Below, in pieces: positions 1 through 36,848 of a stretch of DNA of 64,000 nt. Position 1 is the stretch's first letter; each line of letters opens with the position of its first letter. Source of the DNA: Rhodospirillales bacterium (GTDB taxonomy: Bacteria; Pseudomonadota; Alphaproteobacteria; Acetobacterales; Acetobacteraceae); contig JBBIQA010000001.1 in NCBI GenBank assembly GCA_037442565.1, forward strand, positions 15,331 to 79,330. Direction: 5' to 3'. Below the pieces are notes generated by a model. The model saw only the letters and a list, made by a program, of their open reading frames with translations. It had not been told where the DNA came from and made no database searches. Both the position numbers and the translations under genes were made by a program.

Positions 1-59
1 CGCCGGTTGTTCAAACGCCGGTCCGCAAGCTCGCCGCGGCGGAGTAGGACCAGCCCCGC

Positions 60-842: not shown

Positions 843-851
843 GGTCCTGGT

Positions 852-19234: not shown

Positions 19235-19240
19235 CCCTTC

Positions 19241-19477: not shown

Positions 19478-19614
19478 CCAAAGGGCCTCCTAAGCCCTGA
19501 TCCCATCTTCGATGTCCAATTTGTCGTAACCCCGGCCGGAACATGTCAGGACCAAGGCAGACCCGCCTTCGTCCATCCAATCCCCCTTTCCGCTCCGGCG
19601 CGCTATGAACCGCA

Positions 19615-20586: not shown

Positions 20587-21843
20587 TCAGCCCACGGCCT
20601 CCAGCAGGGCCAGCGCCTCGTCCGGCCCGGCCAGGATCTCCACCAGCCGCACCCTGTCGGCGAGCCCCAGCGCGCCGTCCGCCTTCATGCCGCCGATCTC
20701 CCCGGCGGTGCGCTGCAACTGCGCCTCCAGCCCGTTGCGCGCGTTGATCTTGCGCGCCGCCGCTTCCAGCCGGCGCAGGTCGCGCGCGATGTCCTCCAGC
20801 CGGGTCACCTCGGCCGGATCGGCGCCGGGACGCAGCAGCATCAGCGGTGCGACCAGCTCGCCTGTCAGCCCGGCCTCGAAACGGCTGCGGCAGCTCGCCT
20901 CCACAAGCTGGCGCAGACCATGCACCCGCCGCCGCCGTTCGCTGCTCAGCTGGTCGCTGTCCAGGCCCTGCAGCAAGGCCAGGATGCGGACCACCTCGGG
21001 GCCGGCCTGCGACAATTCACTGCCGGCAACCGGCCCGCCGGCGCCGCCCTGCGCCTCCAGCCCGCCCAGAACCACGTCGATCGCCTGTTCGGCCGCCGCG
21101 CGCATCACCGAATTCGGCCCGATCAGCCCGTTCGAGATCGCCGCCCGCAGCACCGCATCCGCCTGCGGCAGACGCGACAGGAGCAAGGCCAGCAGCATCC
21201 CCCAGGCATCCGGGCTGTGCCCGGCGCTGGTGTCCAGCACCCGCAAGGCGTCTTCCGGCCGCAGCTTGCCGCCCTGGACGACGGTCGCCACCAGTTCGTG
21301 CAGTTCGCTCGCATGTGCCAGCACCACGGAGATGCCGCGCGACAGAGCGCTGAAAACCGATACCGGCAGGCCCGTGGCCTCCCACTGCGGCGGCGGCGGG
21401 CCGGCGCGCGCCAGGATCGCCGACGCCTGCGACCACAGCTGCTCGCCCACGGCCGAGATCGCCGCGCTGTCGGCCGTCGTCTTGCCGGCGATGAAGGCCT
21501 CGATCTCTGCGGCGACCGGACCCAGTTCGCCGCGCACCGCCTCCGCGATCGGCTCCAGCGCCGTGCGCGGAATGGTCGGGCTGCCCGGGCGCCATTTCGG
21601 GCCGGCCACGATCACCGGATCGAACGGGGTGAACAGCAGGCGGCAGAAGCGCAACGGACGGGCCAGCCGAAGCTGCGCCAGGCGTGGGCGCAATGGCGCG
21701 ATCAGGCGATCGGCCTCGCCCCGGTGGGGCAGCGCATCGACCATCGCCACCACGCGGCCGATCTGCGAATCGCGCGCGTGGTTCAGCTCGATATTTAGGT
21801 CCCGGAGCGTCTTCCTGTCGACGCCCCGAACGATTGCTGACAT
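20587..21843 (-). CDS. Hypothetical protein, 418 aa, predicted all-alpha, no recognisable domain
   Basis: Long clean ORF in the expected strand and frame, Leu/Ala/Arg-rich and helical in character. An AT-richer 105-bp leader lies upstream. Confidence 0.7.
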   Translation of the reverse strand: MSAIVRGVDRKTLRDLNIELNHARDSQIGRVVAMVDALPHRGEADRLIAPLRPRLAQLRLARPLRFCRLLFTPFDPVIVAGPKWRPGSPTIPRTALEPIAEAVRGELGPVAAEIEAFIAGKTTADSAAISAVGEQLWSQASAILARAGPPPPQWEATGLPVSVFSALSRGISVVLAHASELHELVATVVQGGKLRPEDALRVLDTSAGHSPDAWGMLLALLLSRLPQADAVLRAAISNGLIGPNSVMRAAAEQAIDVVLGGLEAQGGAGGPVAGSELSQAGPEVVRILALLQGLDSDQLSSERRRRVHGLRQLVEASCRSRFEAGLTGELVAPLMLLRPGADPAEVTRLEDIARDLRRLEAAARKINARNGLEAQLQRTAGEIGGMKADGALGLADRVRLVEILAGPDEALALLEAVG

Positions 21844-21948: not shown

Positions 21949-23064
21949 TCATGCCGCCAGGGCCCGCAAGCGCTCGTTGCGTCCGATCCTATCCAGCACC
22001 ATGCTGCCGGTGCGCCAATCCTCGTTCAGCGTCACGGTCTTGCGGAAGCGGTTCTGCCCGTCGCTATCGACCGGCGTGCCGACCCACTCCGTGGCCTCCT
22101 TGGGGATGACCGGAACGAGGGTCGCGATTTCCACCAGCGCGGCATGGCGCTCCGCCATGGTCTCTGCCCCGCGCCAGAGCAGGCAGATCCGCTCCCAGCC
22201 ATCCAGCAGCCACTCGGACCGCGCCACCCGCTCCGCCAGCGGCTCCGGCGCCGCGCCGAATTCGCGGATCAACCCGACAACATCGCCGGTCATGGCCTGC
22301 GCGTCGGCCAACGTGGCGCGCGCGCAGGTGATCGTCAGGCTAGCCGCCATGGTCGTCATGCCGGCCACTCCGCCGCTGTCGTCGGCGTGCTCCTGCGCCC
22401 AGGAAGCGGTTTGCGCCCGAAGCGCGCAAAGCTGCTCCAGCGCCCGGGGAATGCGCGCCTGATCGGCGAAGCTGCCGACGCCGACGCCCATGAAAACCTC
22501 CGCCAGTTCCTCCAGCCCCTTCGCGATGGTCTCCGGGGTCCAGCCGATCTTGGGCGCCAGTTCGGCGATTGTCTGCCTGGCCCGCGCCTCCAGTTCCTGC
22601 GGCTTGGCCCGATCCGGCGGCGGGGCGGCCCTGCCGTCCGGCTCCTGTTGTTCGACCATGGCCATCAGCAGCAGAAAATTGGTCACCATCCGGTCCTGCC
22701 GGTCGGTGTCGGCCGTGCTGCCCGCCGCTGCCTGCGCCTCGCGCCCGGCCAGCCCCTCGGCCGCCACTTCCCGCGCGGCCTCACGGATCAGCGCCGGCGT
22801 GACGGCCCGCAGAGTGGCGATCTTCTGGTTCAGCCGCGTGTCATGCACGGTCGGCTTGCATAGCTCGCGAACCCCGCTCCAGGGCAGGATATAGACGCCG
22901 CGCCCGCCCGAAGGGTTCGGCACGATCAGTTCCACGCCGCCGCGCTCCGACGGACGCGCCCGCGCCCCGGCAAGCATCGGCGTGGTGAAGGCCATCGCCA
23001 CCCCACGCTCCAGGAAGGTCGTGGGGTGATAGGTGTGGATCAGCGGTATATGCGGCTGTGACAT
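21949..23064 (-). CDS. Hypothetical protein, 371 aa, no recognisable domain
   Basis: Clean ORF, co-directional with and 105 bp upstream of the 418-aa unknown. The N-terminal part looks beta-rich (GVELIVPNPSGGRGVYILPW) and the rest helical. Confidence 0.7.
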   Translation of the reverse strand: MSQPHIPLIHTYHPTTFLERGVAMAFTTPMLAGARARPSERGGVELIVPNPSGGRGVYILPWSGVRELCKPTVHDTRLNQKIATLRAVTPALIREAAREVAAEGLAGREAQAAAGSTADTDRQDRMVTNFLLLMAMVEQQEPDGRAAPPPDRAKPQELEARARQTIAELAPKIGWTPETIAKGLEELAEVFMGVGVGSFADQARIPRALEQLCALRAQTASWAQEHADDSGGVAGMTTMAASLTITCARATLADAQAMTGDVVGLIREFGAAPEPLAERVARSEWLLDGWERICLLWRGAETMAERHAALVEIATLVPVIPKEATEWVGTPVDSDGQNRFRKTVTLNEDWRTGSMVLDRIGRNERLRALAA

Positions 23065-23987: not shown

Positions 23988-24653
23988 TCAAACGCCGGGC
24001 AGGTCGTCAATCGCCGGCCGCCCCGTCAGGTGTCGCCAATGGTGCCACAGCAGCCGCGCCGCCAGCGACCGGGCCGGTCGCCAGGGCTCCGCCAGCGCGC
24101 GCAGTTCCACCGGGCCGGGCCGGGCCGGCAATCCCTTCAGGGCCGCGGCCGCACCCGCCACGGCGATGTCGCCGGCGGGAAACACGTCGCGCCGGCCGAG
24201 CGCGAACAGCAGATAGATTTCCGCGCTCCAGCGCCCCATGCCGCGTACCGCGGTGATCGCCGCGATCGCCTCCTCGTCCGCCATGGCGGCGATCTTCGCC
24301 GCACTCAGCCGGCCGTCCGCGAAGGCGAGCGCCAGGTCGCGGGCATGCGCCACCTTCGGGCGCGACAGCCCGGCGGCGCGCAGATCCGCTTCCCCCATCG
24401 CCAGCAGCCCAGCCGGTTCGAGCGCGCCGGGCAATGCCCGCAGCCGTGCCCAGATGGCGGCGGCGGCCTGGTTGCTGATCATCTGCCCGACGATCGCCTG
24501 CAGCAGCCCGGGAAACCCGTCCGCCCGCCGCCGCCAGGGCAGCGGCCCGGCGGCCGCCTCGATCCGCGCCAGATCCGGATCGGCCGCGACCAGAAGCCCG
24601 ATCGCCGCGCGTTCGGCCGCCGGTACGGCCGGAAATGCGGCCACGGCCTCCAC
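23988..24653 (-). CDS. alkA: DNA-3-methyladenine glycosylase II (AlkA-like, HhH-GPD superfamily)
   Basis: HhH-GPD motifs (LRAAGLSRPKVAHARDLA, VRGMGRWSAEIYLLFALGRRDVFPAGD). The 344-aa ORF was trimmed to the GTG at 24653 so that it does not run through the upstream GNAT gene. Confidence 0.78.
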   Translation of the reverse strand: MEAVAAFPAVPAAERAAIGLLVAADPDLARIEAAAGPLPWRRRADGFPGLLQAIVGQMISNQAAAAIWARLRALPGALEPAGLLAMGEADLRAAGLSRPKVAHARDLALAFADGRLSAAKIAAMADEEAIAAITAVRGMGRWSAEIYLLFALGRRDVFPAGDIAVAGAAAALKGLPARPGPVELRALAEPWRPARSLAARLLWHHWRHLTGRPAIDDLPGV

Positions 24654-25171
24654 TAGGCCGGTATATCCGAATCCCCGGCACCCAGCGCGCGCTGCATCTG
24701 CACCACATCCAGCCACCGTCCGAATTTCAGGCCGGCCGACCGCAGCGTGCCGACATGCTGAAAGCCCAGACTGGCATGCACGCCGATCGAGCCGACATTT
24801 TCGGAATCGCCGATCACCGCGATCATCGTGCGAAACCCGGCCTGCGTCGCGATCTCGATCATGCGCGCGCCGAGCGCCTTGCCGACACCCTGGCCACGAA
24901 CGTCGTCGCGGATATAGATGCTGTCCTCGGCGGTGAAGCGATAGGCCGAACGGTCGCGGAACTGTGCGTAATAGGCGAAGCCCAGCACGCCGGTGGCATC
25001 GGCGGCCACCAGCCAGGCCCACCCATGATCGGCCACGCGGCGATAGCGCCGGGTCATCTCCTCGATCGACGGCGGCTCCTCCTCGAAAGTGCCGGTGCCG
25101 TGCAGCACGTGGTGGGCGTAGATCGCCTGGATCTCGGGAAGGTCGGCCGGGGCGGCGTCACGGATCTGCAT
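24653..25171 (-). CDS. GNAT family N-acetyltransferase (phosphinothricin acetyltransferase-like)
   Basis: MQIRDAAPADLPEIQAIYAHHVLHGTGTFEEEPPS is the PAT-type N-terminus, and RGQGVGKAL is the acetyl-CoA-binding motif. Confidence 0.9.
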   Translation of the reverse strand: MQIRDAAPADLPEIQAIYAHHVLHGTGTFEEEPPSIEEMTRRYRRVADHGWAWLVAADATGVLGFAYYAQFRDRSAYRFTAEDSIYIRDDVRGQGVGKALGARMIEIATQAGFRTMIAVIGDSENVGSIGVHASLGFQHVGTLRSAGLKFGRWLDVVQMQRALGAGDSDIPA

Positions 25172-25557
25172 GCTTGAACCAGTCAGGAAAGGGGTCAGAA
25201 AGGGTGGGCGATTGAAACACCCGGCAGCGGGGCTGGGCCCACCGAATTCCCGGTCGACGTCACGATATCCATCGATGTCACGACATCTTCAGCAAGGCCT
25301 TTATCTATTTCACATATATTCCCGCTAACCTGCGACCGTCACAACCGCTCGCGAAGCACGACGCCTTTTCCCGGGCCTCCCGCCCTGAAGCCACTCGGAC
25401 CTTATCGGATATGTCCTCAAGCCATGCTCCCCCCCCGGCCTCGCGACCAGTCTAGCCGCTTGATTTGCGGGAACAAACCATTGCACGCAAATCTATCGGG
25501 ACAAAACGAACGGCTTTCGTGCTAAACGCCCAGTTACGAGCGATATAGGAGCCACGC
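25172..25557 (+). promoter_or_regulatory. 386-bp non-coding leader/promoter region upstream of the T1SS-glycosyltransferase operon
   Basis: Longest intergenic gap in the window and visibly AT-richer. Contains an 8-bp inverted repeat (gatttgcg 25462-25469, cgcaaatc 25486-25493), the direct repeat gtcacga(N13)gtcacga around 25256-25285, and an AGGAG Shine-Dalgarno at 25547-25551. Confidence 0.45.
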
Positions 25558-27852
25558 GTGGACGATATCCAGGGTCAGTCCATATCATTTGCCGACGCGG
25601 CCGCCAGCGCCGGGGGCGGCGGCGATCAGGCCAGCGGCTCCGATGCCGGCTTCCGCCCGCGCGAGGAGCGTGTCGATCCGCGAGTCCGGGCCGTATCGCT
25701 GGCCGGACGCTACTACGGCATGGAACTGGACGAGGGCGATTTCCGCCGCACGGCCGGTGAAACCCACGCCTCCGCCGCCTCGCTGGCCGCCTGGGCGCAG
25801 GAATGCGGGCTCTGGGCGAAGGGCGTCCGGCTGAACTGGCGCCAGCTTGTGCGCATCCAGGCAGCGGGCCCGGTCGTGCTGCTGTTCACCGACGGCAGCG
25901 CCGGACTGATGACCGCCGCCAACGCGGAAAACCGCGTCGTCATGATCAAGGACCCGCTGGCCCCGGTCAGTGAGCCCGCGGTCGTGGTGGACGAAAACCG
26001 CCTGAAGCAGGTCTGGTCCGGCGAGGCCGTTCTGGTCCGCGCCAACCGCGGCATCGCGGCATCGGATGCGCCGTTCAACCGCAGCTGGCTGATCTCCCTG
26101 GTCGGGCAGGAGCGCCGCTCCCTGCGCGACATCGGCTACGCCTCGCTCACGCTCAGCTTCCTGACCATCTTCCCGCCGCTACTGGTCATGACCGCGGTGG
26201 ACAAGGTGCTGACCCATCACAGCTATTCCACCCTGGCGCTGCTGGCGACCATTCTGGCGATCGGCGTGGTCTACGAAACCCTGCTCGGCCACGCCCGGCG
26301 GATGATCGTGCTGACCGTCGGCACACGGCTCGACACCAAGCTGAACCTGCACATCTTCGCCCGCCTGCTGCGCCTGCCGCTCGACTATTTCGAGCGCCAT
26401 CCCGCCGGCGAGACGATGCACCGGCTCAATCAGGTGAACAAGGTGCGGGAATTCCTCACCGGCAAGCTGCTGACCACCTTCCTCGACATGTTCACCCTGG
26501 TGGTGCTGCTGCCGTTTCTGTTCTACCTCAACGCCACCCTCGCCTGGATCGTGGTGGCCTGCTCGGCGATGATCGCGCTCATCATCCTCGCCTTCCTGAA
26601 GCCGCTGCGCAAAGTCTACGGCAACGTCATCCTGGCCGAGACCGCCCGCGCCTCGGTGCTGGGCGAGACGATCTTCGGCGTGAAGACCGTCAAATCCCTC
26701 GCCATCGAACCCCAGCGCAAGGACCTGTGGGACGCCAAGGTGGCGGACGCGGGCAAGTGGCGCATGGAATTCGGCAAGCTTGCCAGCTGGCCGCAGACCA
26801 TGATCACCCCGATCGAGCGCTTCATGTCGATCGGCATCATCCTGCTCGGCGCCTACCTCGCCCTGAAGGACGACTCCGGCTTCGCCGTGGGCTCGCTGTT
26901 CGCGTTCATGATGCTGTCCATGCGCGTCGCCCAGCCGCTGGTCGGCCTGGCCCGGCTGATCGAGGATTTCGAGGAATTCAGCGCCGCCATCGGCGAGGCC
27001 GGCTCGGTGCTCAACCGGCCGCTGGAAGCCGATGCCGCGTCCGGCGGCCTGCGCCCGAAATTCGAGGGCGCGATCACCGTGGACGACCTGTCGTTCACCT
27101 ATGGCGGCACCAAGGTGCCGGCGCTGGACCGGGTCAGCTTCGCGATCCCGGCCGGGACCATGATGGGCGTGGTCGGGCGCAGCGGCTCGGGCAAATCCAC
27201 CCTGGCCCGGCTGCTGCAGGGCATCAACCGCGACTACTCGGGCTTCCTGAAGATCGACGGCGCCGACCTCCGGGAGATCAACCTGCGGCATCTGCGCTCC
27301 AGCTTCGGCGTCGTGCTGCAGGACAATTTCCTGTTCCGCGGCTCGATCCGCGACAACATCATCGCCGGTCGTCCCGGCCTGACGATCGAGGACGTGGTGC
27401 GGGCCGCGCGGCTGGCGGGCGCCGAGGAATTCATCGAGCGGATGCCGAACGGCTACGAAACCTATATCGAGGAAGGCTCGCCCAACCTTTCCGGCGGCCA
27501 GAAGCAGCGCCTGGCGATCGCCCGCGCGCTGATCCAGGATCCGCGCATCCTGATCCTGGACGAAGCCACCAGCGCGCTCGATCCGGAAAGCGAGGCCCTG
27601 GTCAACGCCAACCTCAACCGGATCGCGCGCGGCCGTACCATGGTGATCGTCTCCCACCGCCTGTCCTCGCTCACCGAGTGCGACCAGATCCTGGTGCTGG
27701 AGAAGGGCAAGCTGGTAGACATCGCGCCGCACCGCACGTTGCTCGAACGCTGCTCGCTCTATCGCCAGCTTTGGGCGCAGCAGAACCGTCACATGGATCA
27801 TCAGGGTACCCGTCATGCAGCGATCGCTCCTACCCTCCTCCAAGGCGACTAA
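25558..27852 (+). CDS. Type I secretion system permease/ATPase (HlyB family) with N-terminal non-catalytic C39-like domain
   Basis: GTG start. C39-like fold (SLAGRYYG...PVVLLFTDGS...VVMIKDP...VWSGEAVLV) that lacks the catalytic Cys and His. Six-TM exporter domain. Walker A GRSGSGKST, signature LSGGQKQR, Walker B ILILDEATSALD, H-loop VIVSHRL. Confidence 0.92.
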   Translation: MDDIQGQSISFADAAASAGGGGDQASGSDAGFRPREERVDPRVRAVSLAGRYYGMELDEGDFRRTAGETHASAASLAAWAQECGLWAKGVRLNWRQLVRIQAAGPVVLLFTDGSAGLMTAANAENRVVMIKDPLAPVSEPAVVVDENRLKQVWSGEAVLVRANRGIAASDAPFNRSWLISLVGQERRSLRDIGYASLTLSFLTIFPPLLVMTAVDKVLTHHSYSTLALLATILAIGVVYETLLGHARRMIVLTVGTRLDTKLNLHIFARLLRLPLDYFERHPAGETMHRLNQVNKVREFLTGKLLTTFLDMFTLVVLLPFLFYLNATLAWIVVACSAMIALIILAFLKPLRKVYGNVILAETARASVLGETIFGVKTVKSLAIEPQRKDLWDAKVADAGKWRMEFGKLASWPQTMITPIERFMSIGIILLGAYLALKDDSGFAVGSLFAFMMLSMRVAQPLVGLARLIEDFEEFSAAIGEAGSVLNRPLEADAASGGLRPKFEGAITVDDLSFTYGGTKVPALDRVSFAIPAGTMMGVVGRSGSGKSTLARLLQGINRDYSGFLKIDGADLREINLRHLRSSFGVVLQDNFLFRGSIRDNIIAGRPGLTIEDVVRAARLAGAEEFIERMPNGYETYIEEGSPNLSGGQKQRLAIARALIQDPRILILDEATSALDPESEALVNANLNRIARGRTMVIVSHRLSSLTECDQILVLEKGKLVDIAPHRTLLERCSLYRQLWAQQNRHMDHQGTRHAAIAPTLLQGD

Positions 27853-29239
27853 CCGGCCGGCGGGGGGCAGAAGCGCGACGAGCGACGATCCCACCCTGCC
27901 GGTGGTTCTCGAGTTCCAGTCGCCGTCGGCCGGCATCCTGGCGATGCCGGTGCCTCGCTCCGCCCGCGGCACGGTCTGGGTCATCGGGTCGATGTTCGCC
28001 GCCTGCGTGGTGGCGCTTGGCGTGATCCATGTCGACCGCGTGGTGACCGCCACCGGGCGGGTGGTATCCCGGTCGGCCAACATCGTCGTGCAGCCGCTGG
28101 AAACCGCCATTGTGCGCTCGATCGAGGTGCATGAGGGGCAGCAGGTCCATGCCGGCGACCTGCTGGCGCGGCTCGATCCCACCTTCGCGGTCGCCGATCA
28201 GGGCGCGCTGGTCGCGCAGGTCGACAGCCTGCAGGCCGAGGTATCCCGACTGCAGGCGGAAGCCGACGGCAAGCCCTTTACCTACACCGGCCTCGACCCG
28301 TCGCTGTCGCTGCAGTCGGCGATCTACGCCCAGCGCGCGGCCGAGCGCAGCTATAAGCTGGAGAACTACCGCCAGAAGATCGACGGCCTGCAGGCCACCG
28401 TGAACCGCTCCGAGGCCGACGCCGCGGCGTTCCGCAGCCGCCTCGCCGTCGCCCAGGATGTCGAGGCCATGCGCAAGAATCTCGAAAGGCTGCAGGTCGG
28501 CAGCAAGCTGAATTCGCTGGCCGCGACCGACAGCCGCCTGGAGATCGCCCGCGGCCTGGCTTCCGCCATCGAGACCGGGGAGACCGCCAAGCGTGACCTG
28601 AAGGCGATGGAAGCCGAGCGCGACGGCTACATCCAGACCTGGCGGGCACAGACCTCGCAATCCCTCACCGAGCAGGTTCGCAAGCTCAGCGACGCCCGCG
28701 AACAGCTGAACAAGGCGCAACTGCGCCGCAAGCTGGTGGAACTGCGCGCCGACCGTGACGCCACGGTGCTGACCCTGGCGCGGGTATCGGTCGGTTCGGT
28801 GCTGCAATCGGGAGAGCAGTTCATAACCCTGGTGCCGACCGACGCACCGATGGAGGTCGAAGCCAACATCGCCGGGCGCGACGACGGCTTCGTGCATGTC
28901 GGCGACCCCGTCGCGGTGAAGTTCGACACCTTCCCGTTCAGCCTGTACGGCATGGCCGAGGGCACGGTGCGCATCGTCAGCCCGGATAGCTTCACCGCCG
29001 CGGACACGCAGTCCAGCCGGAGCCCCGGGGCCGTGCCGCTACCGGGCAATTCGCCGGAGCCTTACTACCGCGCGCGGATCTCCATCGACCAGGTCAACCT
29101 GCACAACGTGCCGCCTAACTTCCGGATCAGCCCGGGCATGCCGGTCACCGCGGACGTCAAGGTCGGCAAGCGCACCGTCCTGAGCTACCTGCTGGGCCGC
29201 ATCCTGCCGGTCACCCAGGAGGGGATGCGCGAGCCGTGA
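27815..29239 (+). CDS. HlyD family type I secretion periplasmic adaptor (membrane fusion protein)
   Basis: VLEFQSPSAGILAMPVP N-terminus, one TM helix, long coiled-coil (LQAEVSRLQAEADG...), and a C-terminal ISPGMPVTADVKVGKRTVLSYLL motif. Overlaps the ABC gene by 38 nt. Confidence 0.92.
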   Translation: MQRSLLPSSKATNRPAGGRSATSDDPTLPVVLEFQSPSAGILAMPVPRSARGTVWVIGSMFAACVVALGVIHVDRVVTATGRVVSRSANIVVQPLETAIVRSIEVHEGQQVHAGDLLARLDPTFAVADQGALVAQVDSLQAEVSRLQAEADGKPFTYTGLDPSLSLQSAIYAQRAAERSYKLENYRQKIDGLQATVNRSEADAAAFRSRLAVAQDVEAMRKNLERLQVGSKLNSLAATDSRLEIARGLASAIETGETAKRDLKAMEAERDGYIQTWRAQTSQSLTEQVRKLSDAREQLNKAQLRRKLVELRADRDATVLTLARVSVGSVLQSGEQFITLVPTDAPMEVEANIAGRDDGFVHVGDPVAVKFDTFPFSLYGMAEGTVRIVSPDSFTAADTQSSRSPGAVPLPGNSPEPYYRARISIDQVNLHNVPPNFRISPGMPVTADVKVGKRTVLSYLLGRILPVTQEGMREP

Positions 29240-29318
29240 TACCCGTGCCGGCCAGCTTCTCCGCACCCGCCCCGGCTTCGCCGCGCCGCCTCCGGATCGG
29301 AAGCAAGGCGTTCACCTC

Positions 29319-31166
29319 ATGAAGCCGTTCGATCGGATCCATTCCATCCTCTCCCCGGCGGCGGCTCTGCGCCGGGCCACCGCCCTCGCGGCCCGCGACG
29401 AGCATGCCCACGCCTTCCCCCTCTATGTTCGCGCCGCCCGCGGCGGACTGGCCGAGGCCGAGTATCGCGTCGGGCGCAGCTACCTCGAAGGCGCGGGTGT
29501 GCCGCGCAGCCAGGTCGAGGGCATCCGCTGGCTCGAGCGCGCCGCCGCCCACGGCCATATCGAGGCGATGTCCCTGCTTGCCGCGCTCTACATCCACGGC
29601 ATCGGCGGTCCCCGCGATGCCGCCCTCGCCGCAGGCGGTGTCCCCGGCGAAACCCAGGGCGCAACCCAGGGCGGAACCGCCGCCAGCCTGCTGTTCTCCA
29701 GCAACCAAACCCAGGAACCGGATTTCGCCGCCGCCGCCCATTGGGCCCGGATGGCTGCCGAGGCGGGCTCCGCCGACGGCCAAGCCGTGCTCGCCTATCT
29801 GCTGACCTCCGGCCCCGAGGACATGCGCGACCTCGCGGAGGCGCATCTCTGGTACGAACGCTCGGCCGAGGCCGGCTGCCCGCAAGGCGCGCTCGGCTTC
29901 GCCCTTTCCCTGGCACGCGACGCGAAGGAGGAGGCAACCCACCAACGCGTCGTGCACTACCTCACCCGCGCGGCGGAAACCGACCTACCGACGGCGCTGT
30001 ATCTGCTCGGCGTGCTGCATGAACGTGGTGTCGGCGTGGAGCGCGATACCGCCGCCGCGGCCCAGCTCTACCGCCGCGCCGCGGAAAAGGGCAACCGCTC
30101 CGGCCAGGCGCGCTGGGGCCTGGCGCTGATGGAGGGCCAGGGCGTCGACGCCAACCCGTCGGAGGGCGAATCCTGGCTGCGCCGCGCGGCGCTGGCGGGC
30201 GACCCCGAGGCCGCCGCCCTGGTCGGCGACATATACGCCAAGGGCGGCGCATTGCCGCCGAACTATGCCGAAGCGGCGATCTGGATGCGCCGCGCCGCCG
30301 AGGCCGGCCACGCCGGTGCCGCCCGCACGCTCGGCCTGCTGCACCTGACCGGCGCCGGCGTCGCCCCCGACCAGGAAGAAGCCGCCCGCTGGCTGCGCGT
30401 CGCCGGCGAAGCCGGCGACAAGCACGCCCAAGCCGATCTCGCCAACCTGGTGCTGAAGGGCGTCGGCGGCACGGACGACCTGTTGCGCACCCGCCAATGG
30501 TTCGAGCAGGCGGCCGCCTCCGGCGATCTGGTCGCCGCCTTCAACTATGGCGTCTGCCTCGCCCAGGGCGTCGGCGTTCCCAAGGACGAAAAGCAGGCCG
30601 CGGTATGGATGCGCCGGGCGGCCGAAGGGGTGGTCAACGCGCAGTATTGGTACGGCCGCATGCTGATCGAGGGCAAGGGCGTGCCGGTGGACCTGGAAGC
30701 CGGCCGCTCCTGGATCGCCCGGGCCGCCGATATCGGCATGCTGGACGCCGAAGTGGCGCTGGCCGACATGCTGCTCAACGGCAAGGGCGGCCCGCGCGAC
30801 CATGGCATGGCGCTGGGATTGTTCGAGAAGGCGGCGGCCAAGGGCCATGTCGGCGCCTGCTTCGCCGTCGGCGCGATGCTGGGCGGCGGGCATGAGGTAC
30901 CGACCGACCGCGTCAGCGCCCAGCGCTGGTTCCAGCAGGCGGCCGAGCGCGGCCATCCGGTGGCCCAGATGATGCTGGGCCGCTACCTCACGCGCGGCCT
31001 GGCCGGCGAGATCGACCCGGTTCGCGCCCGGCACTGGCTGAACCAGGCCGTCGCCAACGGCCAGACCGAAGCGTCGCGCGACCTGGCGGCGCTGGATCTG
31101 GCCGAGCGCAACAATCCGACGCAGCCATCCGAAGGGGCCCCGATCGCCCGCGCGGTCGGGCTCTGA
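29319..31166 (+). CDS. Sel1-like repeat (SLR/TPR-family) protein, 615 aa, no signal peptide
   Basis: More than ten repeats of the Sel1 pattern (AEAEYRVGRSYLEGAGVPRSQVEGIRWLERAAAHGH, and so on). The N-terminus has no hydrophobic leader. Confidence 0.9.
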   Translation: MKPFDRIHSILSPAAALRRATALAARDEHAHAFPLYVRAARGGLAEAEYRVGRSYLEGAGVPRSQVEGIRWLERAAAHGHIEAMSLLAALYIHGIGGPRDAALAAGGVPGETQGATQGGTAASLLFSSNQTQEPDFAAAAHWARMAAEAGSADGQAVLAYLLTSGPEDMRDLAEAHLWYERSAEAGCPQGALGFALSLARDAKEEATHQRVVHYLTRAAETDLPTALYLLGVLHERGVGVERDTAAAAQLYRRAAEKGNRSGQARWGLALMEGQGVDANPSEGESWLRRAALAGDPEAAALVGDIYAKGGALPPNYAEAAIWMRRAAEAGHAGAARTLGLLHLTGAGVAPDQEEAARWLRVAGEAGDKHAQADLANLVLKGVGGTDDLLRTRQWFEQAAASGDLVAAFNYGVCLAQGVGVPKDEKQAAVWMRRAAEGVVNAQYWYGRMLIEGKGVPVDLEAGRSWIARAADIGMLDAEVALADMLLNGKGGPRDHGMALGLFEKAAAKGHVGACFAVGAMLGGGHEVPTDRVSAQRWFQQAAERGHPVAQMMLGRYLTRGLAGEIDPVRARHWLNQAVANGQTEASRDLAALDLAERNNPTQPSEGAPIARAVGL

Positions 31167-31177
31167 TCCGCCGCGCC

Positions 31178-34100
31178 ATGGCCGCGCCTGTGCCGGAACC
31201 GGTGGACCCGGCCAAAGCCGGGCCAGCGGCCGGCGCCGACGCCGGGGAAAACGGGCCCGATCACGCCAAACTCGCCGGCGAGGCGTTAGCCCAGGGCCAG
31301 GAAGCCGCCGCCCGGGGCGACGCCGAGGCCGCTCGGCGCTGGTTCGACCGCGCCAGCCGCCTCGCGCCCGGCGACGACACCGCGACGCTCTGCCTCGCCA
31401 GCGCCTGCCTGAACCACGACAACGCCCGCGCCGCCGGACTGTTCGAGCAGGTGCTGGAACGCCACGATCTGCAGCCGGCCTGGATCGGCCTCGCGCTCGC
31501 CCGGCTGCGGCTCGGCCAGGCCGCGCCGGCCGCCCAGGCCCTGGCCGCCGCGCTCGGCCGCTTCGCGATCATCCGCCGCGACGACTTCGCCCCCATCGCC
31601 GACGCGATCGTGCAGGCAACGCAGGTTCCAGGCTGGTGCGGCCTGCAATGGCCCGGCGCGGGCCCAGGCCGTTCCGCGCCGGACGGCATGCTGTGTGTCG
31701 GTCCGCCTGGCCCTGCCGAAGTCGCGCTGGACGGCCAGCCCGTCGCCGCGCGCGTCACCCGCCACGGCCTGCGACTGCCGCCCCGCTGGCAGCAGGCCCG
31801 GCGCCTGGATGTCCATCGCAACGGCCAGCCCCTGCTCGGCAGCCCGATCGACATCGCCGCGCTCCGGCGTACCGAGGGCTGCGTCTGGGCGAGCGAAGGC
31901 GATGACGGGGTCGCGGGCGATGGGGGCCTGGAAGGCTGGGCCTGGCATCCCGCCAATCCCGAAGCCGACCCGGTGCTGACCCTGCGGGCACTGTCCGACC
32001 CCGCCGCGCCGGCCGGCCGCCGGAACCAACCGCCCGGCCGGACCCTCACCCTCACCCCCAGCGATCATGCCGCCTCTGTCATCGGCACGGCGATCCTGGC
32101 GCGGCCGAGACGGTTCCGCGTTTCGGCCCAGGCACTGGCCGCGCTGGCGGGAAACGGCCCCATCGGACAGATCAGCATCACCGGCGCCGACGGAAGACAG
32201 CTTTCCGGCAGCCCGCTCGACCCCGGGGTGCTGCACCGCGAGGCGGTCGCCGCCGCCCTGGCGATCGCGGCGCGCTTTCCGGCCGGCCCCCCGGCCAAAC
32301 GGGCCTCCCGCCGCCCGCCGGTGGATGTCGTCATCCCCGTGCATGGTGGCGGCCGGATCACGCTGGATTGCATCGACACGGTTCTGGCCACCCTGCCCCG
32401 CGCCAGCCGCCTGGTGGTGGTGGACGACGCCTCTCCCGAAACCGGCGACAACGCAGATCTCGCCCACGCGCTGGACCGCCTGGCCACCAGGCGGCGCATC
32501 CGGCTGATCCGTCATGCCGCCAATCTCGGTTTTCCCGCCAGCGCCAATGCCGGGCTGCGGGCCTGCGCAGGGCGCGACGCGGTGCTGCTGAACAGCGACA
32601 CGCTGGTGCCGCCCAACTGGCTGGAACGGCTGCGCGACGCCGCCTACAGCGCCGGCAATATTGGAACCGTCACGCCGTTGTCGAACGACGCGACCATCCT
32701 CAGCTATCCCCATCCGAGCGCCGCCAGCCCGGCCCCCACCCTGGCCGAAACCGAATGCCTGGACCGGCTTGCCGCACAGGCCAACGGCGCCGGCGTGATC
32801 GACATCCCCACCGCGGTCGGCTTCTGCATGTATATCCGCCGCGACTGCCTGGACGCGGTCGGCGCCCTGCGCGAGGACCTGTTCGCCCAGGGCTACGGCG
32901 AGGAGAACGATTTCTGCATGCGCGCCCGCCATCTCGGCTGGCGCCACGTCGCCGCGCCGGGCGTCTTCATCGCGCACCGCTCCGGCCAGTCCTTCGGCAG
33001 CGCGCGGGCACACCTGCTGTCGCGCAACGCCGCGGTGCTGGACCGGCTGCACCCGGGCTACGCCGCCCTGGTCGCCCGGCACGGCCTGGCCGACCCGCTG
33101 GCCCACGCGCGCCGGCGGATCGACGCGGCCCGATGGCGGGAAGGCGCCAAGCGAGGCGGGGGCCAACGAAGCGGGGCCCGCCGGAAGGCCATGATCCTGG
33201 TCACCCATTTTCACGGCGGCGGCACCGAACGCCAGCTGCGCGTGCAGATCGAGGCCGCCCGCCAGGCCGGGCAGCGCCCGATCGTGCTGCGCCCGGCCCG
33301 CCTGCCGGACGGCTCGACGGCCGTCATGCTCGGGGACGGCGAGGCCACCGAGTACCCCAATCTGCGCTTCGCCCTGCCCGCCGAATTGCCCGCCGTGATC
33401 CGCCTGCTCGCCGCCGAGCGACCGGTCGCGGCGCAGGTGCATCATCTGCTCGGCCACGATCCGTCGGTGCTGCAAATCCTGGCGAAACTCGCCCTTCCCT
33501 ACGACGTCCACGTCCACGACTTCGCCGCCTTCTGCCCGCGCGTCGGCCTGCTCGGCCCCGAAAGGCGATATTGCGGCGAGCCCGACATCGCCCGGTGCGA
33601 GGCCTGCATCGCCGATATCGGCCGCAAGGACGGGCTGGACATCCCGGTGGCGGAACTGCGACGGCAATCGGCCGGCCTGTTCGCCGCCGCCGCCCGCGTC
33701 GTGGCGCCCTCGAACGACACCGCCACCCGGATCCGGCGGCACTTCCCGGCCATCGAGCCGGCCGTCGTCGAGCATGGCGACGACCGGGCCGTCGCCGACC
33801 CGCCGCCGCCCCGGCTGGTGCGCCGATCCGGGCTCGGGGGAAGTGCGGAATCGACGGGCCAGCCCGGCCAGGCGATCTGCCGCGTCGCCGTGATCGGCGC
33901 CATCGGCCTCGAAAAAGGCTACGAGGTGCTGCTGGCCTGCGCGCGCGACGCCGCCTGGCGGAACCTGCCGCTTGAATTCATCGTGATCGGCCACAGCATC
34001 GACGACGCCCGCCTGCTGGCCACCGGACGGGTCTTCATCACCGGGGAATACCGCCCGGAGGAGGCCGTGGACCTGATCCGCGCCCAGCAGGCCTCGCTCG

Positions 34101-34315
34101 CGCTGATCCCGTCGATCTGGCCGGAAACCTGGTGCTTCACCCTGACCGAGGCGTGGCAGGCCGGCCTGCAAGCCGCCTGCTTCGACATCGGCGCGCCGGC
34201 CGAACGCATCCGGCGCAGCGGGCGCGGCATGGTCCTGCCGCTCGGACTGCCCGCCGGCGCCATCAATCATCAAATGATGACGGCAACCGGCCTCGCGCGA
34301 GACGAAAGGGCCTGA
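31178..34315 (+). CDS. Multidomain glycosyltransferase: N-terminal TPR-like region + linker + GT2 (GT-A) domain + C-terminal GT4-like (GT-B) domain
   Basis: TPR-like helices at about aa 20-130. GT2 motifs VDVVIPVHGG, VVVDDASPE, LLNSDT and GFCMYIRR. The C-terminal GT-B half (MILVTHFHGGGTERQ...) carries an E-x7-E motif (PETWCFTLTEAW). No TM segments. Confidence 0.88.
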   Translation: MAAPVPEPVDPAKAGPAAGADAGENGPDHAKLAGEALAQGQEAAARGDAEAARRWFDRASRLAPGDDTATLCLASACLNHDNARAAGLFEQVLERHDLQPAWIGLALARLRLGQAAPAAQALAAALGRFAIIRRDDFAPIADAIVQATQVPGWCGLQWPGAGPGRSAPDGMLCVGPPGPAEVALDGQPVAARVTRHGLRLPPRWQQARRLDVHRNGQPLLGSPIDIAALRRTEGCVWASEGDDGVAGDGGLEGWAWHPANPEADPVLTLRALSDPAAPAGRRNQPPGRTLTLTPSDHAASVIGTAILARPRRFRVSAQALAALAGNGPIGQISITGADGRQLSGSPLDPGVLHREAVAAALAIAARFPAGPPAKRASRRPPVDVVIPVHGGGRITLDCIDTVLATLPRASRLVVVDDASPETGDNADLAHALDRLATRRRIRLIRHAANLGFPASANAGLRACAGRDAVLLNSDTLVPPNWLERLRDAAYSAGNIGTVTPLSNDATILSYPHPSAASPAPTLAETECLDRLAAQANGAGVIDIPTAVGFCMYIRRDCLDAVGALREDLFAQGYGEENDFCMRARHLGWRHVAAPGVFIAHRSGQSFGSARAHLLSRNAAVLDRLHPGYAALVARHGLADPLAHARRRIDAARWREGAKRGGGQRSGARRKAMILVTHFHGGGTERQLRVQIEAARQAGQRPIVLRPARLPDGSTAVMLGDGEATEYPNLRFALPAELPAVIRLLAAERPVAAQVHHLLGHDPSVLQILAKLALPYDVHVHDFAAFCPRVGLLGPERRYCGEPDIARCEACIADIGRKDGLDIPVAELRRQSAGLFAAAARVVAPSNDTATRIRRHFPAIEPAVVEHGDDRAVADPPPPRLVRRSGLGGSAESTGQPGQAICRVAVIGAIGLEKGYEVLLACARDAAWRNLPLEFIVIGHSIDDARLLATGRVFITGEYRPEEAVDLIRAQQASLALIPSIWPETWCFTLTEAWQAGLQAACFDIGAPAERIRRSGRGMVLPLGLPAGAINHQMMTATGLARDERA

Positions 34316-34392
34316 TAAACCGTCGCGGCAGACGATCGGCGCGAGCCTGTTGGCGCGAGCTTTTTTTCGAGTGACCCTATCGAGGTAAGTGC

Positions 34393-35541
34393 ATGTCCGA
34401 GACGAGACCAGCGCCAGCGGAAAGCGGCCAGAAGCGGATCACCGAATTGCGGGTGTCCGGCCATCTGATGACCCTGGAGACCGGCACATTCTGCGTCTTC
34501 CACGCGCCGGGCTCCGCCGCCGGCGACCCCGCGCTCGGCCTGCCGGGCGTGCGCATCTCGCTGCCGCCGGGGCCGGTGCACAACCAGGACCAGGTCAGCA
34601 TCAGCACGTTCCGCCCCGACGGCTGGTTGGGCGGCTCCGATTCCGCGGCGCTGATCCGTGTCGCCTCCGGCCCGGCCCAGGTGCTAGTAACGATCTACCA
34701 GGCCCCCGGGCAAGGCAACGAGAACGCCCCGAAGCTGCAGGTGCTGCGCCTCAGCCCAGAGCCGCAGCCGGCGTCCGCGGCGGCGCCCGGCCAGGCGAAG
34801 CCGGCCGACGCGGCGGTGCCATCGGGCGCCGGCAAGGCCGGCGCGGCGGCGCCGGCCGGCGAACGCCCGGGCATTGAGGGCACGCCGGACATCATCGTGC
34901 ACCGCCAGGTGGTCGGCGACGTCGCCAGCCGGATCGGCGAATGGGCCGGCGAACGCGCCAGCCGAAACTGGATCGAAGGGTTCTCGATCCTGCCGCCGTC
35001 GCCGCTGAAGGCCGAGGACATCGAATACCAGGCCGTGCTCGGCCGCGGCTGGCTGTCGCCCTGGGTCAATGGCGGCCAGTTCTGCGGCAGCCGCGGCATG
35101 GCGCTGCCCCTGCTCGGCCTGCGGCTGCGGCTGAAGGGGGACGCGGCCGAACGCTATGACTGCGTCTGCCACGCCAGCTTCATCGACGGCACGCAGGTCG
35201 GCCCGCTGCCGGCCGGCGCCGCCTGCGAGGCGGAGAGCCTGGCCCCGCTGGAAGCCTTCCAGATCATCATCGAGCCCAAAGCGGCAGCCCGTAGGGCGAC
35301 GCCGGCACCAGCGCCAGCACATGCGAAAGCCCAGGCGGCCCCGCCGGTGCAAGCCACGCCAGCAGCCGCGCGGATGGTGCCGGCCAAGGCGAAGCCCATG
35401 GCGAAGTCCGCGCCTGCAAAGCCGGTCGCCAAGGGAAAGGCGGCCGCACCGTCCAAACCCGCCGCGGCGAAACCGGCGGCCAAAGCCAGGCCCAGCGCAG
35501 CGGCGAAGCGCCCCTCGCCATCGGGCACACGGGCCCGCTGA
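34393..35541 (+). CDS. Hypothetical protein: N-terminal beta-rich domain, three ChW-like repeats, Ala/Lys/Pro-rich basic C-terminal tail
   Basis: GAGGT Shine-Dalgarno 6 nt before the ATG. Internal three-fold repeat at aa 166-293. The tail at aa 296-382 is rich in AKP/KPAA-type motifs. No signal peptide and no GGxGxD repeats. Confidence 0.75.
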   Translation: MSETRPAPAESGQKRITELRVSGHLMTLETGTFCVFHAPGSAAGDPALGLPGVRISLPPGPVHNQDQVSISTFRPDGWLGGSDSAALIRVASGPAQVLVTIYQAPGQGNENAPKLQVLRLSPEPQPASAAAPGQAKPADAAVPSGAGKAGAAAPAGERPGIEGTPDIIVHRQVVGDVASRIGEWAGERASRNWIEGFSILPPSPLKAEDIEYQAVLGRGWLSPWVNGGQFCGSRGMALPLLGLRLRLKGDAAERYDCVCHASFIDGTQVGPLPAGAACEAESLAPLEAFQIIIEPKAAARRATPAPAPAHAKAQAAPPVQATPAAARMVPAKAKPMAKSAPAKPVAKGKAAAPSKPAAAKPAAKARPSAAAKRPSPSGTRAR

Positions 35542-35621
35542 GGCCGCGGGACCCACGCAACCATGCTGATTTCAGGCTGGCACGGTCCTAGGCGCCGCAT
35601 GGGGTCACGGCGCCTGCCCCG

Positions 35622-36848
35622 ATGAAGTTCCTGCTGGTTCATCAGAACTTCCCCGGGCAGTTCCTGCACCTCGTTCGCCACCTGGCGAAAGCGAAGACGC
35701 ATGAGGTCGTGTTCCTGTCGGAACCGAACCCCAACGTGATCTCCGGCGTGCGCAAGGTGCCCTACCGCAAGCCGCCGCCGGTTTCACCCGAAACCCACTG
35801 GGCGGCGCGGGAATTCGATGCCGCGATGCGCCGGGCGGAAATGGTCGCGCAGACCGCCGGCAACCTGAAGCAGCTCGGCTTCACTCCGGACATCATCATC
35901 GGCCATCACGGCTGGGGCGAGATGCTCAACCTGCCGGATGTCTGGCCCGACGCGCCGATGCTCGGCTACATGGAATTCTATTACCATACCGACGGTGTCG
36001 ATGTCGGGTTCGACACCGAATTCCCGATCCCGGTTGCCGAATTTCCCCGCATCCGGGCCAAGAACGCCGTCAACCATCTGGCCCTGAACCTTGGCCAGCA
36101 CGGCCAGACACCCACGCGATGGCAGCGTTCCACCTATCCGGACTGGGCGCATGAGCAGATCCACCTGCTGCCCGAGGGCGTGGATCTCGCGGCCTGCGCG
36201 CCCAGCGCCAAGGCCCGCAAGGCGCGGCTGAAGATCGGCGGCACGACGATCGGCCCGCAGGAAAAGCTGGTGACCTATGTCGCGCGCGACCTGGAACCGT
36301 ATCGCGGCTTCCACGTCCTGATGCGAACGCTGCCGCTGCTGCTGAAGGCGCGCAAGGATCTGCGCGTGGTCATCGTCGGCGGCGACGGCGTCAGCTACGG
36401 CGCCGCGCCGGCCAGCGGCACCTGGCGTGAAACCATGCTGGCCGAGCTTGGCGGCAAGATCGACCTCAGTCGCGTCGTTTTCCCCGGCCGGGTCGACTAC
36501 GCAACGTACCTGGCCCTGCTGAAGCGCTCGGACGCGCATGTCTACCTCACCTACCCCTTCGTCGCCTCCTGGTCGCTACGCGAGGCTCTGGCGAGCGGTT
36601 GCGCCGTGGTCGGCTCCGACACCGAGCCGGTGCGCGAGTTCGTCACCCATGGCGTCAACGGCCTGCTCGTGCCGTTCTTCGACACCAAGGCCCTGGCCCG
36701 CCAGATCCTGAAGGTGATCGAGGACGACGCCCTGTCCAAGCGGCTTCGTGCCGGGGCCCGGCGCTACGCCGAGGCGCATCTGGCCATGGACGACTACATT
36801 CGCGACTATGAGGCGCTGATCGCCCGTATCATCGCGCCGAACGAATGA
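35622..36848 (+). CDS. Glycosyltransferase family 4 (GT-B, retaining type)
   Basis: MKFLLVHQNFPGQF N-terminus typical of a GT4 subgroup. The C-terminal half has PFVASWSLREALASGCAVVGSD (E-x7-E region). Confidence 0.88.
   Translation: MKFLLVHQNFPGQFLHLVRHLAKAKTHEVVFLSEPNPNVISGVRKVPYRKPPPVSPETHWAAREFDAAMRRAEMVAQTAGNLKQLGFTPDIIIGHHGWGEMLNLPDVWPDAPMLGYMEFYYHTDGVDVGFDTEFPIPVAEFPRIRAKNAVNHLALNLGQHGQTPTRWQRSTYPDWAHEQIHLLPEGVDLAACAPSAKARKARLKIGGTTIGPQEKLVTYVARDLEPYRGFHVLMRTLPLLLKARKDLRVVIVGGDGVSYGAAPASGTWRETMLAELGGKIDLSRVVFPGRVDYATYLALLKRSDAHVYLTYPFVASWSLREALASGCAVVGSDTEPVREFVTHGVNGLLVPFFDTKALARQILKVIEDDALSKRLRAGARRYAEAHLAMDDYIRDYEALIARIIAPNE

Follow-up and report, generated by a model that had tools for sequence, protein, structure and literature searches.

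A conserved six-gene block joining a type I secretion trio to soluble glycosyltransferases in Acetobacteraceae, a candidate system for secretion-coupled glycosylation

Introduction

Gene clusters that combine type I secretion with glycosyltransferase (GT) genes have been known genetically since the exp cluster of Sinorhizobium meliloti. The present analysis concerns a block of six genes in a 64-kb stretch of DNA (hereafter the window) from a Rhodospirillales bacterium of the family Acetobacteraceae, in which an HlyB-type ATP-binding cassette (ABC) exporter, an HlyD-family adaptor and a Sel1-repeat protein (genes 1-3) are followed by a large fused GT, a protein with ChW-like repeats and an ExpC-type GT4 (genes 4-6). 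An earlier description of this DNA, made from the letters alone and here called the sequence-only reading, had proposed that these parts form one system which either glycosylates an exported protein or exports an unusual glycoconjugate.

Gene content of the block

The six open reading frames (ORFs) lie on the plus strand at 25558-36848 with gaps of -38, 79, 11, 77 and 80 nt, as had been claimed for them, and this layout is reproduced by the ORF map (Table 1). The GC content at third codon positions of the six genes is 0.86-0.90, and since the rest of the window is similar the genes look native. In a crude hydropathy scan only the ABC protein and the adaptor contain transmembrane-like segments, while the products of genes 3-6 show neither these nor signal-like segments, for which reason these four proteins look soluble and cytoplasmic.

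Table 1. Features of the six-gene block and of the region upstream of it (nt, positions in the window; AF2, AlphaFold2 model; A1, alignment of gene 5 homologues)
Feature	Position (nt)	Residues	Strand	Product	Description	Basis
Upstream intergenic region	25172-25557		.		386 nt without ORF, shared with a divergent GNAT gene	
Gene 1	25558-27852		+	764 aa, GTG start	HlyB-type ABC exporter: degenerate C39-like domain, six-transmembrane domain, nucleotide-binding domain	
Gene 1, C39-like domain	~25672-26082	~39-175	+		C39-like domain	HlyB alignment
Gene 2	27815-29239		+	474 aa	HlyD-family type I secretion adaptor	
Gene 3	29319-31166		+	615 aa	Sel1-repeat protein, predicted cytoplasmic; conserved third member of the trio	
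Gene 4	31178-34315		+	1045 aa	TPR/beta/GT2/GT4 fusion (TPR, tetratricopeptide repeat)	
Gene 4, TPR-like helices	31262-31621	29-148	+		TPR-like helices	AF2, Pfam matches of homologues
Gene 4, beta-rich region		~150-350	+		Beta-rich region	AF2
Gene 4, GT-A domain	32315-33001	~380-608	+		GT-A/GT2	Pfam, AF2
Gene 4, GT-B domain	33185-34288	~670-1037	+		GT-B/GT4; Cys4 cluster, E-x7-E motif	Pfam, AF2
Gene 5	34393-35541		+	382 aa	ChW protein	
Gene 5, N-terminal domain		~18-121	+		Beta domain	A1, AF2
Gene 5, ChW-like repeats	34888-35280	~166-296	+		Three repeats	PF07538
Gene 5, C-terminal tail	35281-35538	297-382	+		Basic Ala/Pro/Lys tail, variable length, usually ends RRxR	
Gene 6	35622-36848		+	408 aa	ExpC/WgcA-type GT4	PF12000 (E 5e-58), PF00534

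Conservation of the block

For the comparative analysis one genome per species was scanned, the 80 best loci were kept and 10 kb was read on either side of the matches. A relative of gene 5 was confirmed at 567 of 599 candidate sites, which corresponds to at least 567 species genomes, and the 80 best loci belong nearly all to Acetobacteraceae, including Rhodopila, Acidisphaera, Asaia bogorensis, Acetobacter fallax and A. oeni. When the six proteins were compared by tblastn with 84 loci, the order ABC-HlyD-Sel1-gene 4-gene 5-gene 6 on a single strand was found in about 69 of the 71 loci with sufficient upstream DNA. Identities within the conserved block range from 40 to 97%, while the flanks vary between lineages; the nearest relative, a soil metagenome-assembled genome (MAG; loci L001 and L005), is 90-97% identical. 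Co-occurrence of the six genes beyond this genome, a check that had been set in advance, was in this way borne out.

Exceptions to the complete arrangement are informative as to its parts. In one locus (L046) the GT-ChW-GT4 trio stands without the upstream secretion trio, and in another (L076, a second copy in one MAG) only separate GT2, ChW and GT4 genes are found. Judged from these genomic comparisons, the block is a unit in which two modules can be separated, and its six genes are presumably co-transcribed as one operon. The original proposal that the genes belong together stood, and of the two outcomes offered for the system, glycosylation of an exported protein and export of a glycoconjugate, either may apply.

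Two variants of the arrangement were also observed. A cytochrome P450 gene lies between the Sel1 gene and gene 4 in two Acetobacteraceae MAGs (L030:5294-6712 and L057, ~5259-6644), and its product is 32% identical to a P450 in the secretion/GT cluster of Polaromonas JS666 (L100:17372-18643); it may be a recurrent accessory part. On plasmid pAAJCM20276_1 of Acetobacter aceti (L086, 5435-14583) a broken-up GT module lies among IS5 elements with no secretion genes nearby, and consists of a separate GT2, a 555-aa hypothetical protein, an IS66 insertion and homologues of gene 5 (52%) and gene 6 (61%).

The secretion trio

The domain identities given by the sequence-only reading for the first three products, namely an ABC exporter with a C39-like domain, an HlyD adaptor and a Sel1 protein without signal peptide, hold in Pfam, NCBIfam and hydropathy analysis and in alignment with HlyB. 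Gene 1 contains ABC_membrane (PF00664) and ABC_tran (PF00005), and its residues 39-742 align to E. coli HlyB (7sgr/8dck) with E 1e-118, the C39-like domain included. In this domain the position of the catalytic Cys is occupied by Pro41 and that of the His by Ala, so that an active peptidase or bacteriocin exporter was rejected. The best NCBIfam match of gene 1, TIGR01846, reaches 544 bits and stays under the 725-bit cut-off. The adaptor encoded by gene 2 matches TIGR01843 (type_I_hlyD) with 377 bits at a cut-off of 209 and has one transmembrane-like segment at residues ~50-80. The 38-nt overlap of the ABC and HlyD genes is identical in the window (27815-27852), in Rhodopila (L003, 6778-6815) and in Azospirillum (L088, 44332-44369), which suggests a conserved translational coupling.

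Gene 3 encodes ten Sel1 repeats (PF08238 x10, E 1e-84). Its N-terminus is not hydrophobic, and the ORF has no upstream start codon, so no extension with a signal peptide is available. The AlgK and ExoR models match this protein merely as generic Sel1 repeats, far under their cut-offs. The analogy once drawn with periplasmic Sel1/TPR scaffolds of exopolysaccharide machines therefore fails for want of a signal peptide, and a periplasmic scaffold role was rejected on the same ground.

The glycosyltransferases and the ChW protein

The product of gene 4 had been described as a soluble 1045-aa TPR-GT2-GT4 fusion, which holds true with the addition of a beta-rich region. Pfam assigns PF00535/PF13641 to its GT2 and PF00534/PF13692 to its GT4 part, the TPR matches PF13428, PF07719 and PF14559 are found in its homologues, and the AF2 model, with a predicted local distance difference test (pLDDT) score of 81, contains seven N-terminal helices, a beta-rich region, a GT-A and a GT-B domain. 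The invariant residues of the GT-A domain in the alignment (A2) include D416/D417, N472-S473-D474 and E575/E576/D578, which represent the motifs DD, NSD and GYGEEND, and those of the GT-B domain include C786/C799/C807/C810 (RYCGEP...CxxC) and E983, the first Glu of E-x7-E. The four invariant cysteines probably form a metal-binding insert in the GT-B domain; the stretch that contains them lies at 33533-33610 of the window (residues 786-810), and pLDDT is below 50 at residues 793-815. In Foldseek comparison the nearest structures to the GT-A domain are the archaeal mannosyltransferase PcManGT and polypeptide GalNAc-transferases (E ~1e-10).

Homologues of gene 4 are numerous (more than 848 matches). 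Its GT2-GT4 core (residues ~382-1011) is 32% identical over ~630 residues to a large GT on E. coli plasmids, a protein of 1095 aa for which the alignment begins at residue 382. The plasmid cluster has the order rfbBADC-GT2-wzm-wzt-GT, which is the classical layout of an ABC-transporter-dependent O-antigen locus. Small IncF-type plasmids of E. coli from food animals, for example pEM20-18-50_5 (L094, 1127-11226), carry a complete rhamnose/Wzm-Wzt O-antigen-type cluster. Core homologues occur also on a Komagataeibacter plasmid and on a Rhodospirillum rubrum plasmid, in the latter together with an RTX gene, a type I ABC/HlyD pair and nucleotide-sugar genes.

Of gene 5 the sequence-only reading had noticed the repeats and the basic tail, both of which stand, and had missed the rest of the architecture: an N-terminal beta domain, an Ala/Pro linker and the identity of the repeats as three ChW-like units (PF07538, E 1.6e-5). 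In an alignment of 34 homologues (A1) the beta domain is well conserved, the linker is variable, the tail varies in length, and the motif EYQAVLGRGW..SPW..GG.CGSRGM is invariant. In the AF2 model most of both folded domains has pLDDT above 80. No sequence match was found in the PDB and no Foldseek match at E<=1e-3, and a beta-trefoil lectin fold is unsupported by both searches. The protein belongs to a large family with more than 2,500 matches, and 1630 clusters at 50% identity were counted at E<=1e-10 in an exhaustive profile search.

The role of gene 5 is best approached through Azospirillum plasmids, where its module forms the C-terminus of a 1380-aa "glycosyltransferase". The gene 4 part of this fusion is 39% identical over 1043 residues (E 3e-171), and for the ChW part, which has no basic tail, identity is 33% (E 2e-36); further fusions, for example proteins of 1284 and 1352 aa, came from the profile search. 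ChW is known as a module of Gram-positive bacteria that binds cell-wall glycopolymers. Because it is fused to a gene 4 homologue in Azospirillum, gene 5 is considered an enzyme subunit, and by its sequence relationships it is probably a glycan-binding one. For the same reason the former idea that the 382-aa protein is a client of the TPR and Sel1 scaffolds became unlikely. A role as secreted cargo is also unlikely in view of its conserved globular domains, three invariant Cys, pI of 9.8, basic C-terminus and the Azospirillum fusion.

Over its whole length (412 aligned positions, E 4e-93) gene 6 shares 41% identity with WgcA of S. meliloti, formerly ExpC; identity is 48% with an Azospirillum GT4 and 43% with a Polaromonas GT4. 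In Ralstonia, ExpC-like GT4 genes are not located beside type I secretion or RTX genes.

Related clusters in other lineages

Homologues of the secretion trio are found far outside Acetobacteraceae. The identities of the ABC, HlyD and Sel1 proteins to those of the window are 66/58/53% in Mesorhizobium ciceri, 45/49/35% in Azospirillum and 42/39/31% in Bradyrhizobium, and in a MAG locus (L097) a Sel1 homologue of ~55% identity follows HlyD. In all four a type I cargo gene adjoins the trio. The neighbour is a DUF4347 protein in L097 and a DUF4347-RTX protein in Azospirillum, while the Bradyrhizobium row consists of genes for an RTX protein, a methyltransferase, ABC, HlyD, Sel1 and a 1308-aa WbsX-GT4-GT2 protein, followed by dTDP-rhamnose genes. 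On the M. ciceri plasmid, which has the closest trio outside Acetobacteraceae, the product of the neighbouring gene (L092:7767-10040) is a DUF4347 protein in which collagen-like Gly-x-Thr/Ser triplets extend over several hundred residues (Pfam Collagen, E 2e-41; 31% Ser+Thr). Its gene faces that of a GT2-Anp1-GT25 protein with FkbM methyltransferases beside. The collagen-like protein is an attractive candidate for a glycosylated type I cargo.

The second module shows similar company. In four Azospirillum species an RTX calcium-binding protein, the fusion of genes 4 and 5, a methyltransferase, an ExpC-like GT4 and another methyltransferase are encoded in this order in a conserved operon, and the plasmid also carries the secretion trio at a distance of 55 kb. 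Polaromonas JS666 has the row ABC-HlyD-TolC-GT4, in which the ExpC-like GT4 gene overlaps the TolC gene by 4 nt and a giant RTX gene lies beside, and plasmids of ~68 kb in Phaeobacter inhibens carry an ExpC-like GT4 gene beside type I secretion and RTX genes. The neighbouring cargo proteins contain 17-31% Ser+Thr. In the annotated stretches of the clusters no exporter other than the type I system is listed, neither a Wzm/Wzt-type transporter nor a sugar-phosphate transferase was seen, and most of the enzymes have no transmembrane-like segments in the crude hydropathy scan. The linkage of type I secretion with glycosyltransferases, asserted before for this locus, recurs with non-homologous GTs in unrelated lineages, namely Bradyrhizobium, Mesorhizobium, Azospirillum, Polaromonas, Phaeobacter, R. 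rubrum and S. meliloti.

Intergenic regions and remainder of the window

The region upstream of gene 1 is presumed to contain the operon promoter. It had been called the longest non-coding region in the window; its 386 nt are real, but by the ORF map it is possibly only among the longest, since a gap of ~380 nt is located at 19235-19614 and 1410-1739 is also open. The motif AGGAG stands 7 nt 5' of the GTG start of gene 1, a simple promoter scan gave only a weak sigma-70-like match, no Rfam family matched anywhere in the window, the upstream region included, and the length of this region differs widely among relatives. A simple scan, which was uninformative, returned no terminator-like sites in the intergenic gaps of the block. 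The gap between genes 4 and 5 contains a direct repeat, GGCGCGAGC, in two copies (34338-34346 and 34352-34360), after which come seven T in a row (34361-34367), which is unusual for a sequence of 68% GC. It is not a canonical hairpin terminator, and the repeat with the T run (34338-34367) might attenuate transcription.

The block is flanked upstream by a divergent GNAT acetyltransferase gene and a gene for an HhH-GPD protein, and downstream by a gene for a Usp protein. The GNAT gene (24653-25171, minus strand) is found in the same position in 26 related loci with 56-96% identity. The remainder of the window consists of housekeeping and transport genes. Two adjacent conserved minus-strand genes at 20587-21843 and 21949-23064 (418 and 371 aa) have no Pfam match; the pair is also present in the 91-97% identical relative L001 and has no obvious tie to the operon. 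A tRNA-Lys(UUU) called by ARAGORN at 5439-5518 (minus strand) falls inside a sulfate permease ORF (4750-6483) and is probably a false positive, as Rfam at the gathering threshold gives no tRNA there.

Comparison with characterised systems

The sequence-only reading knew of no characterised system with this architecture. This statement did not survive: the exp/wg cluster for exopolysaccharide II (EPS II) of S. meliloti is a genetically characterised relative, with a type I pair, the RTX protein ExpE1, glycosyltransferases, and the WgcA/ExpC enzyme to which gene 6 is 41% identical. In S. meliloti the ExpD1/ExpD2 pair secretes ExpE1, and mutation of expD blocks EPS II (PMC1403797). Both clusters combine a type I ABC exporter and adaptor with soluble glycosyltransferases, both include an enzyme that joins an alpha- and a beta-forming GT (WgeB, or ExpE2, is annotated as bifunctional, and gene 4 contains GT2 and GT4), and no Wzx/Wzy-type or Wzm/Wzt-type genes were seen adjoining either. 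The differences are also considerable. ExpD1 is PrtD-like, has no C39-like domain and is 29% identical to gene 1 only from residue 194 on; no Sel1 gene and no ChW module are present in the 40 kb of pSymB that were read; and WgeB is a distant relative of gene 4 (23% over the GT2 domain, E 6e-10). The RTX gene expE1 and dTDP-sugar genes of the S. meliloti cluster are absent from the block and the window, whereas RTX and dTDP-sugar features are present in the Azospirillum, Bradyrhizobium and R. rubrum relatives. The dependence of glycan production on secretion genes is documented only in S. meliloti (PMC1403797).

With the E. coli HlyB-HlyD-TolC system the block shares full-length HlyB homology, a non-catalytic C39-like domain, an adaptor of the HlyD type I subfamily and the overlap of the ABC and adaptor genes. 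It differs in having an extra cytoplasmic Sel1 protein and no RTX cargo, acyltransferase or TolC gene, and in that gene 1 stays under the TIGR01846 cut-off. The absence of an RTX array (RTX regular expression; tblastn) and of a TolC homologue (tblastn with Polaromonas TolC) from the 64-kb window agrees with what the sequence-only reading had stated for the block. Unlinked tolC genes are common in type I systems, and therefore a missing linked TolC does not exclude function.

Glycosylation in the cytoplasm before secretion is known from HMW1C/NGT with two-partner secretion, TibC/Aah with autotransporters, FlmG with flagellins and GtfA/B with accessory Sec. The block resembles systems of the FlmG, HMW1C and TibC type in its soluble GTs without lipid-carrier enzymes, in the TPR repeat region and in the link to a dedicated secretion route, and its relatives adjoin Ser/Thr-rich repetitive secreted proteins. 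Unlike these systems, which use GT41, GT9-like or other enzymes, it has only GT2 and GT4 domains according to Pfam and NCBIfam, its route would be type I, and candidate substrates are found only in other lineages. The glycocin system SunS/SunT differs in that the C39-like domain of the block lacks the catalytic Cys and His; no small gene for a leader-peptide precursor of the glycocin type was seen, and no systematic search for one was made.

Among polysaccharide systems, the Wzm/Wzt O-antigen type shares with the block the homologue of the GT2-GT4 core and the use of soluble multi-domain enzymes, and possibly also a recognition step, as ChW could act in the manner of the Wzt carbohydrate-binding domain. 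However, the sole transporter of the block is HlyB-like and not of the ABC-2 type, Wzm and Wzt are missing, and the E. coli homologue has neither the TPR/beta N-terminal region nor the ChW module. Neither a Wzm/Wzt or KpsMT transporter nor a lipid-carrier initiating enzyme is encoded among the six genes or in the flanks examined. From the synthase-dependent exopolysaccharide machines (alginate, Pel, poly-N-acetylglucosamine, cellulose) the block is distinguished by GT2 and Sel1 proteins without transmembrane or signal-like segments.

Proposed mechanism and alternative explanations

A type-I-coupled glycosylation, in which a glycan is built on a cargo protein in the cytoplasm and the product is then exported, is tentatively preferred, as a proposal that falls well short of an even chance and has the EPS II cluster as its closest characterised relative. 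According to this model gene 4 (an inverting GT2 with a retaining GT4), the detachable ChW subunit of gene 5 and gene 6 (an ExpC-type alpha-glycosyltransferase) would form a soluble complex at the cytoplasmic face of the inner membrane and would make a glycan from common nucleotide sugars. The HlyB-type ABC protein, the HlyD adaptor and an unlinked TolC would export an unfolded Gly/Thr/Ser-rich calcium-binding protein, which would be of the RTX or DUF4347 type and encoded elsewhere in the genome, and to which the glycan would already have been joined before export. Cargo that is still unfolded may be kept between enzyme and pump by the Sel1 protein together with the TPR region. The ChW repeats may act like a lectin and retain the enzyme on stretches that are already glycosylated, and the basic tail of gene 5 may also have a role in the system.

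This reading is the most economical one because both modules repeatedly have RTX or DUF4347 genes as neighbours, no exporter other than the type I system is annotated in the cluster stretches examined, the enzymes are soluble and one has a TPR region, and the pump is accompanied by a cytoplasmic Sel1 protein. A protein acceptor may be hinted at by the resemblance of the modelled GT-A domain to polypeptide GalNAc-transferases, by the TPR region and by the Ser/Thr content of the neighbouring cargo proteins. Glycosylated RTX proteins exist in cyanobacteria, for example SwmA and oscillin (PMC3034196). In full-text searches of the literature no description of this architecture, nor of a glycosylation machinery for a type I secreted protein, was found.

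Several observations weigh against cargo glycosylation. The GalNAc-transferase likeness is generic to GT-A folds, with TM-scores of 0.35-0.5 on the target and identity of 18-20%. The homologue of the gene 4 core in a Wzm/Wzt cluster suggests a polymerase acting on a lipid-linked glycan, EPS II, the product of the ExpC pathway, is described as a free polysaccharide, and a long glycan on a polypeptide may be blocked from the type I channel. Moreover, a cargo gene is absent from the window and, with the exception of one weak match in locus L016, from within 10 kb of the block in 84 Acetobacteraceae loci, as searched by the RTX regular expression and by tblastn with four Azospirillum calcium-binding proteins, a Bradyrhizobium RTX protein and two DUF4347 proteins. 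Likewise, when a database was searched with the DUF4347 domain from Mesorhizobium, none of the matches lay on contigs that carry the block, and the named ones were mostly from Mesorhizobium. A variant in which the type I cargo serves as carrier or primer, so that a cytoplasmic polymerase complex of the three enzyme proteins would build a repeating glycan on the Sel1-held, unfolded Gly/Thr-rich cargo and the product would be threaded through ABC-HlyD-TolC, is regarded as somewhat unlikely.

A different division of labour, also somewhat unlikely on the present balance, would have the enzymes contribute to a separate, free or lipid-anchored surface polysaccharide exported by machinery encoded elsewhere, while the type I pump secretes only a partner protein that is needed outside the cell and releases, organises or anchors it; the genes would then cluster because both products form one surface structure. 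This corresponds to what is established so far for EPS II. A comparable arrangement is that of Caulobacter, where rsaA-rsaD-rsaE are followed by O-antigen genes needed for S-layer anchoring. The secretion of ExpE1 by ExpD1/ExpD2, the block of EPS II in expD mutants (PMC1403797) and the 41% identity of gene 6 to ExpC can be read in the same sense, as can the GT2-GT4 core homologue in the E. coli rfbBADC-GT2-wzm-wzt cluster, the position of the Azospirillum module among rfb, GDP-mannose and Wzm/Wzt-like genes on a surface-polysaccharide plasmid, and the binding of cell-wall glycopolymers by ChW in Gram-positive bacteria. However, the block is self-contained while its flanks change, and neither an initiating sugar-phosphate transferase nor a flippase, Wzm/Wzt or an exporter of polysaccharide through the outer membrane is encoded in it; annotation of the Bradyrhizobium, R. 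rubrum and Polaromonas clusters shown gives no further exporter and no initiating transferase; and a dedicated cytoplasmic Sel1 protein that travels with the pump beside different sets of GTs is left unexplained. More unlikely still is that the pump exports the glycan itself, without any protein cargo, after polymerisation on a lipid or other non-protein primer, with ChW recognising the finished chain, the HlyB-like ABC protein, HlyD and TolC carrying it over both membranes, and the Sel1 protein and dead C39-like domain acting as coupling parts. This would explain the missing cargo gene in more than 80 Acetobacteraceae loci, and it is consistent with the polymerase-like core of gene 4, with the methyltransferases of the Azospirillum and Bradyrhizobium relatives, which could cap chains, with the lipid-acceptor GT4 enzymes such as PimA that are the best PDB sequence matches of gene 6, and with the glucan, lipid A and heterocyst-polysaccharide exporters among the NCBIfam relatives of gene 1. 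Against it, gene 1 has its best full-length match in HlyB, a protein with a cargo-binding C39-like domain, the adaptor belongs to the type I secretion subfamily, homologous trios directly adjoin RTX or DUF4347 cargo genes, and we know of no type I system of this class that moves a polysaccharide. The loss of EPS II secretion in expD mutants (PMC1403797) would fit such a route, and a loose parallel is offered by the adaptor-TolC route BgsA-BgsB-TolC proposed for mixed-linkage glucan (PMC13438883).

Finally, it was considered whether the two trios are uncoupled and adjacent only by inheritance within one family, which the separability of the modules (loci L046 and L076) and the 55 kb between them in Azospirillum would allow. 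This is very improbable, since the adjacency survives at 40-60% protein identity across many genera, type I genes stand beside GT genes of different kinds in at least six other lineages, and the Azospirillum modules share one plasmid.

Significance

In clusters that join type I secretion with glycosyltransferases, the mutual dependence of secreted protein and glycan has, to our knowledge, never been worked out. The block described here is a compact form of such a cluster, with six genes and no cargo gene, and by its gene 5 marker it occurs in at least 567 species genomes. Some of its carriers, in the genera Acetobacter and Asaia, can be cultivated, and relatives in Azospirillum, Mesorhizobium and Bradyrhizobium are accessible to genetics, so that the question of coupling between pump and glycan becomes directly testable. 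Three of its parts are undescribed, namely the cytoplasmic Sel1 protein as a partner of the pump, the enzyme with TPR, GT2 and GT4 regions, and the ChW subunit, which some lineages have as a fusion with this enzyme. If the glycan indeed travels with the cargo, the system would represent a new export route for glycoproteins, or even polysaccharides, across both membranes, it would be of use in glyco-engineering of secreted proteins, and it would explain the long-standing puzzle of why EPS II of S. meliloti needs ExpE1 and ExpD1/ExpD2.

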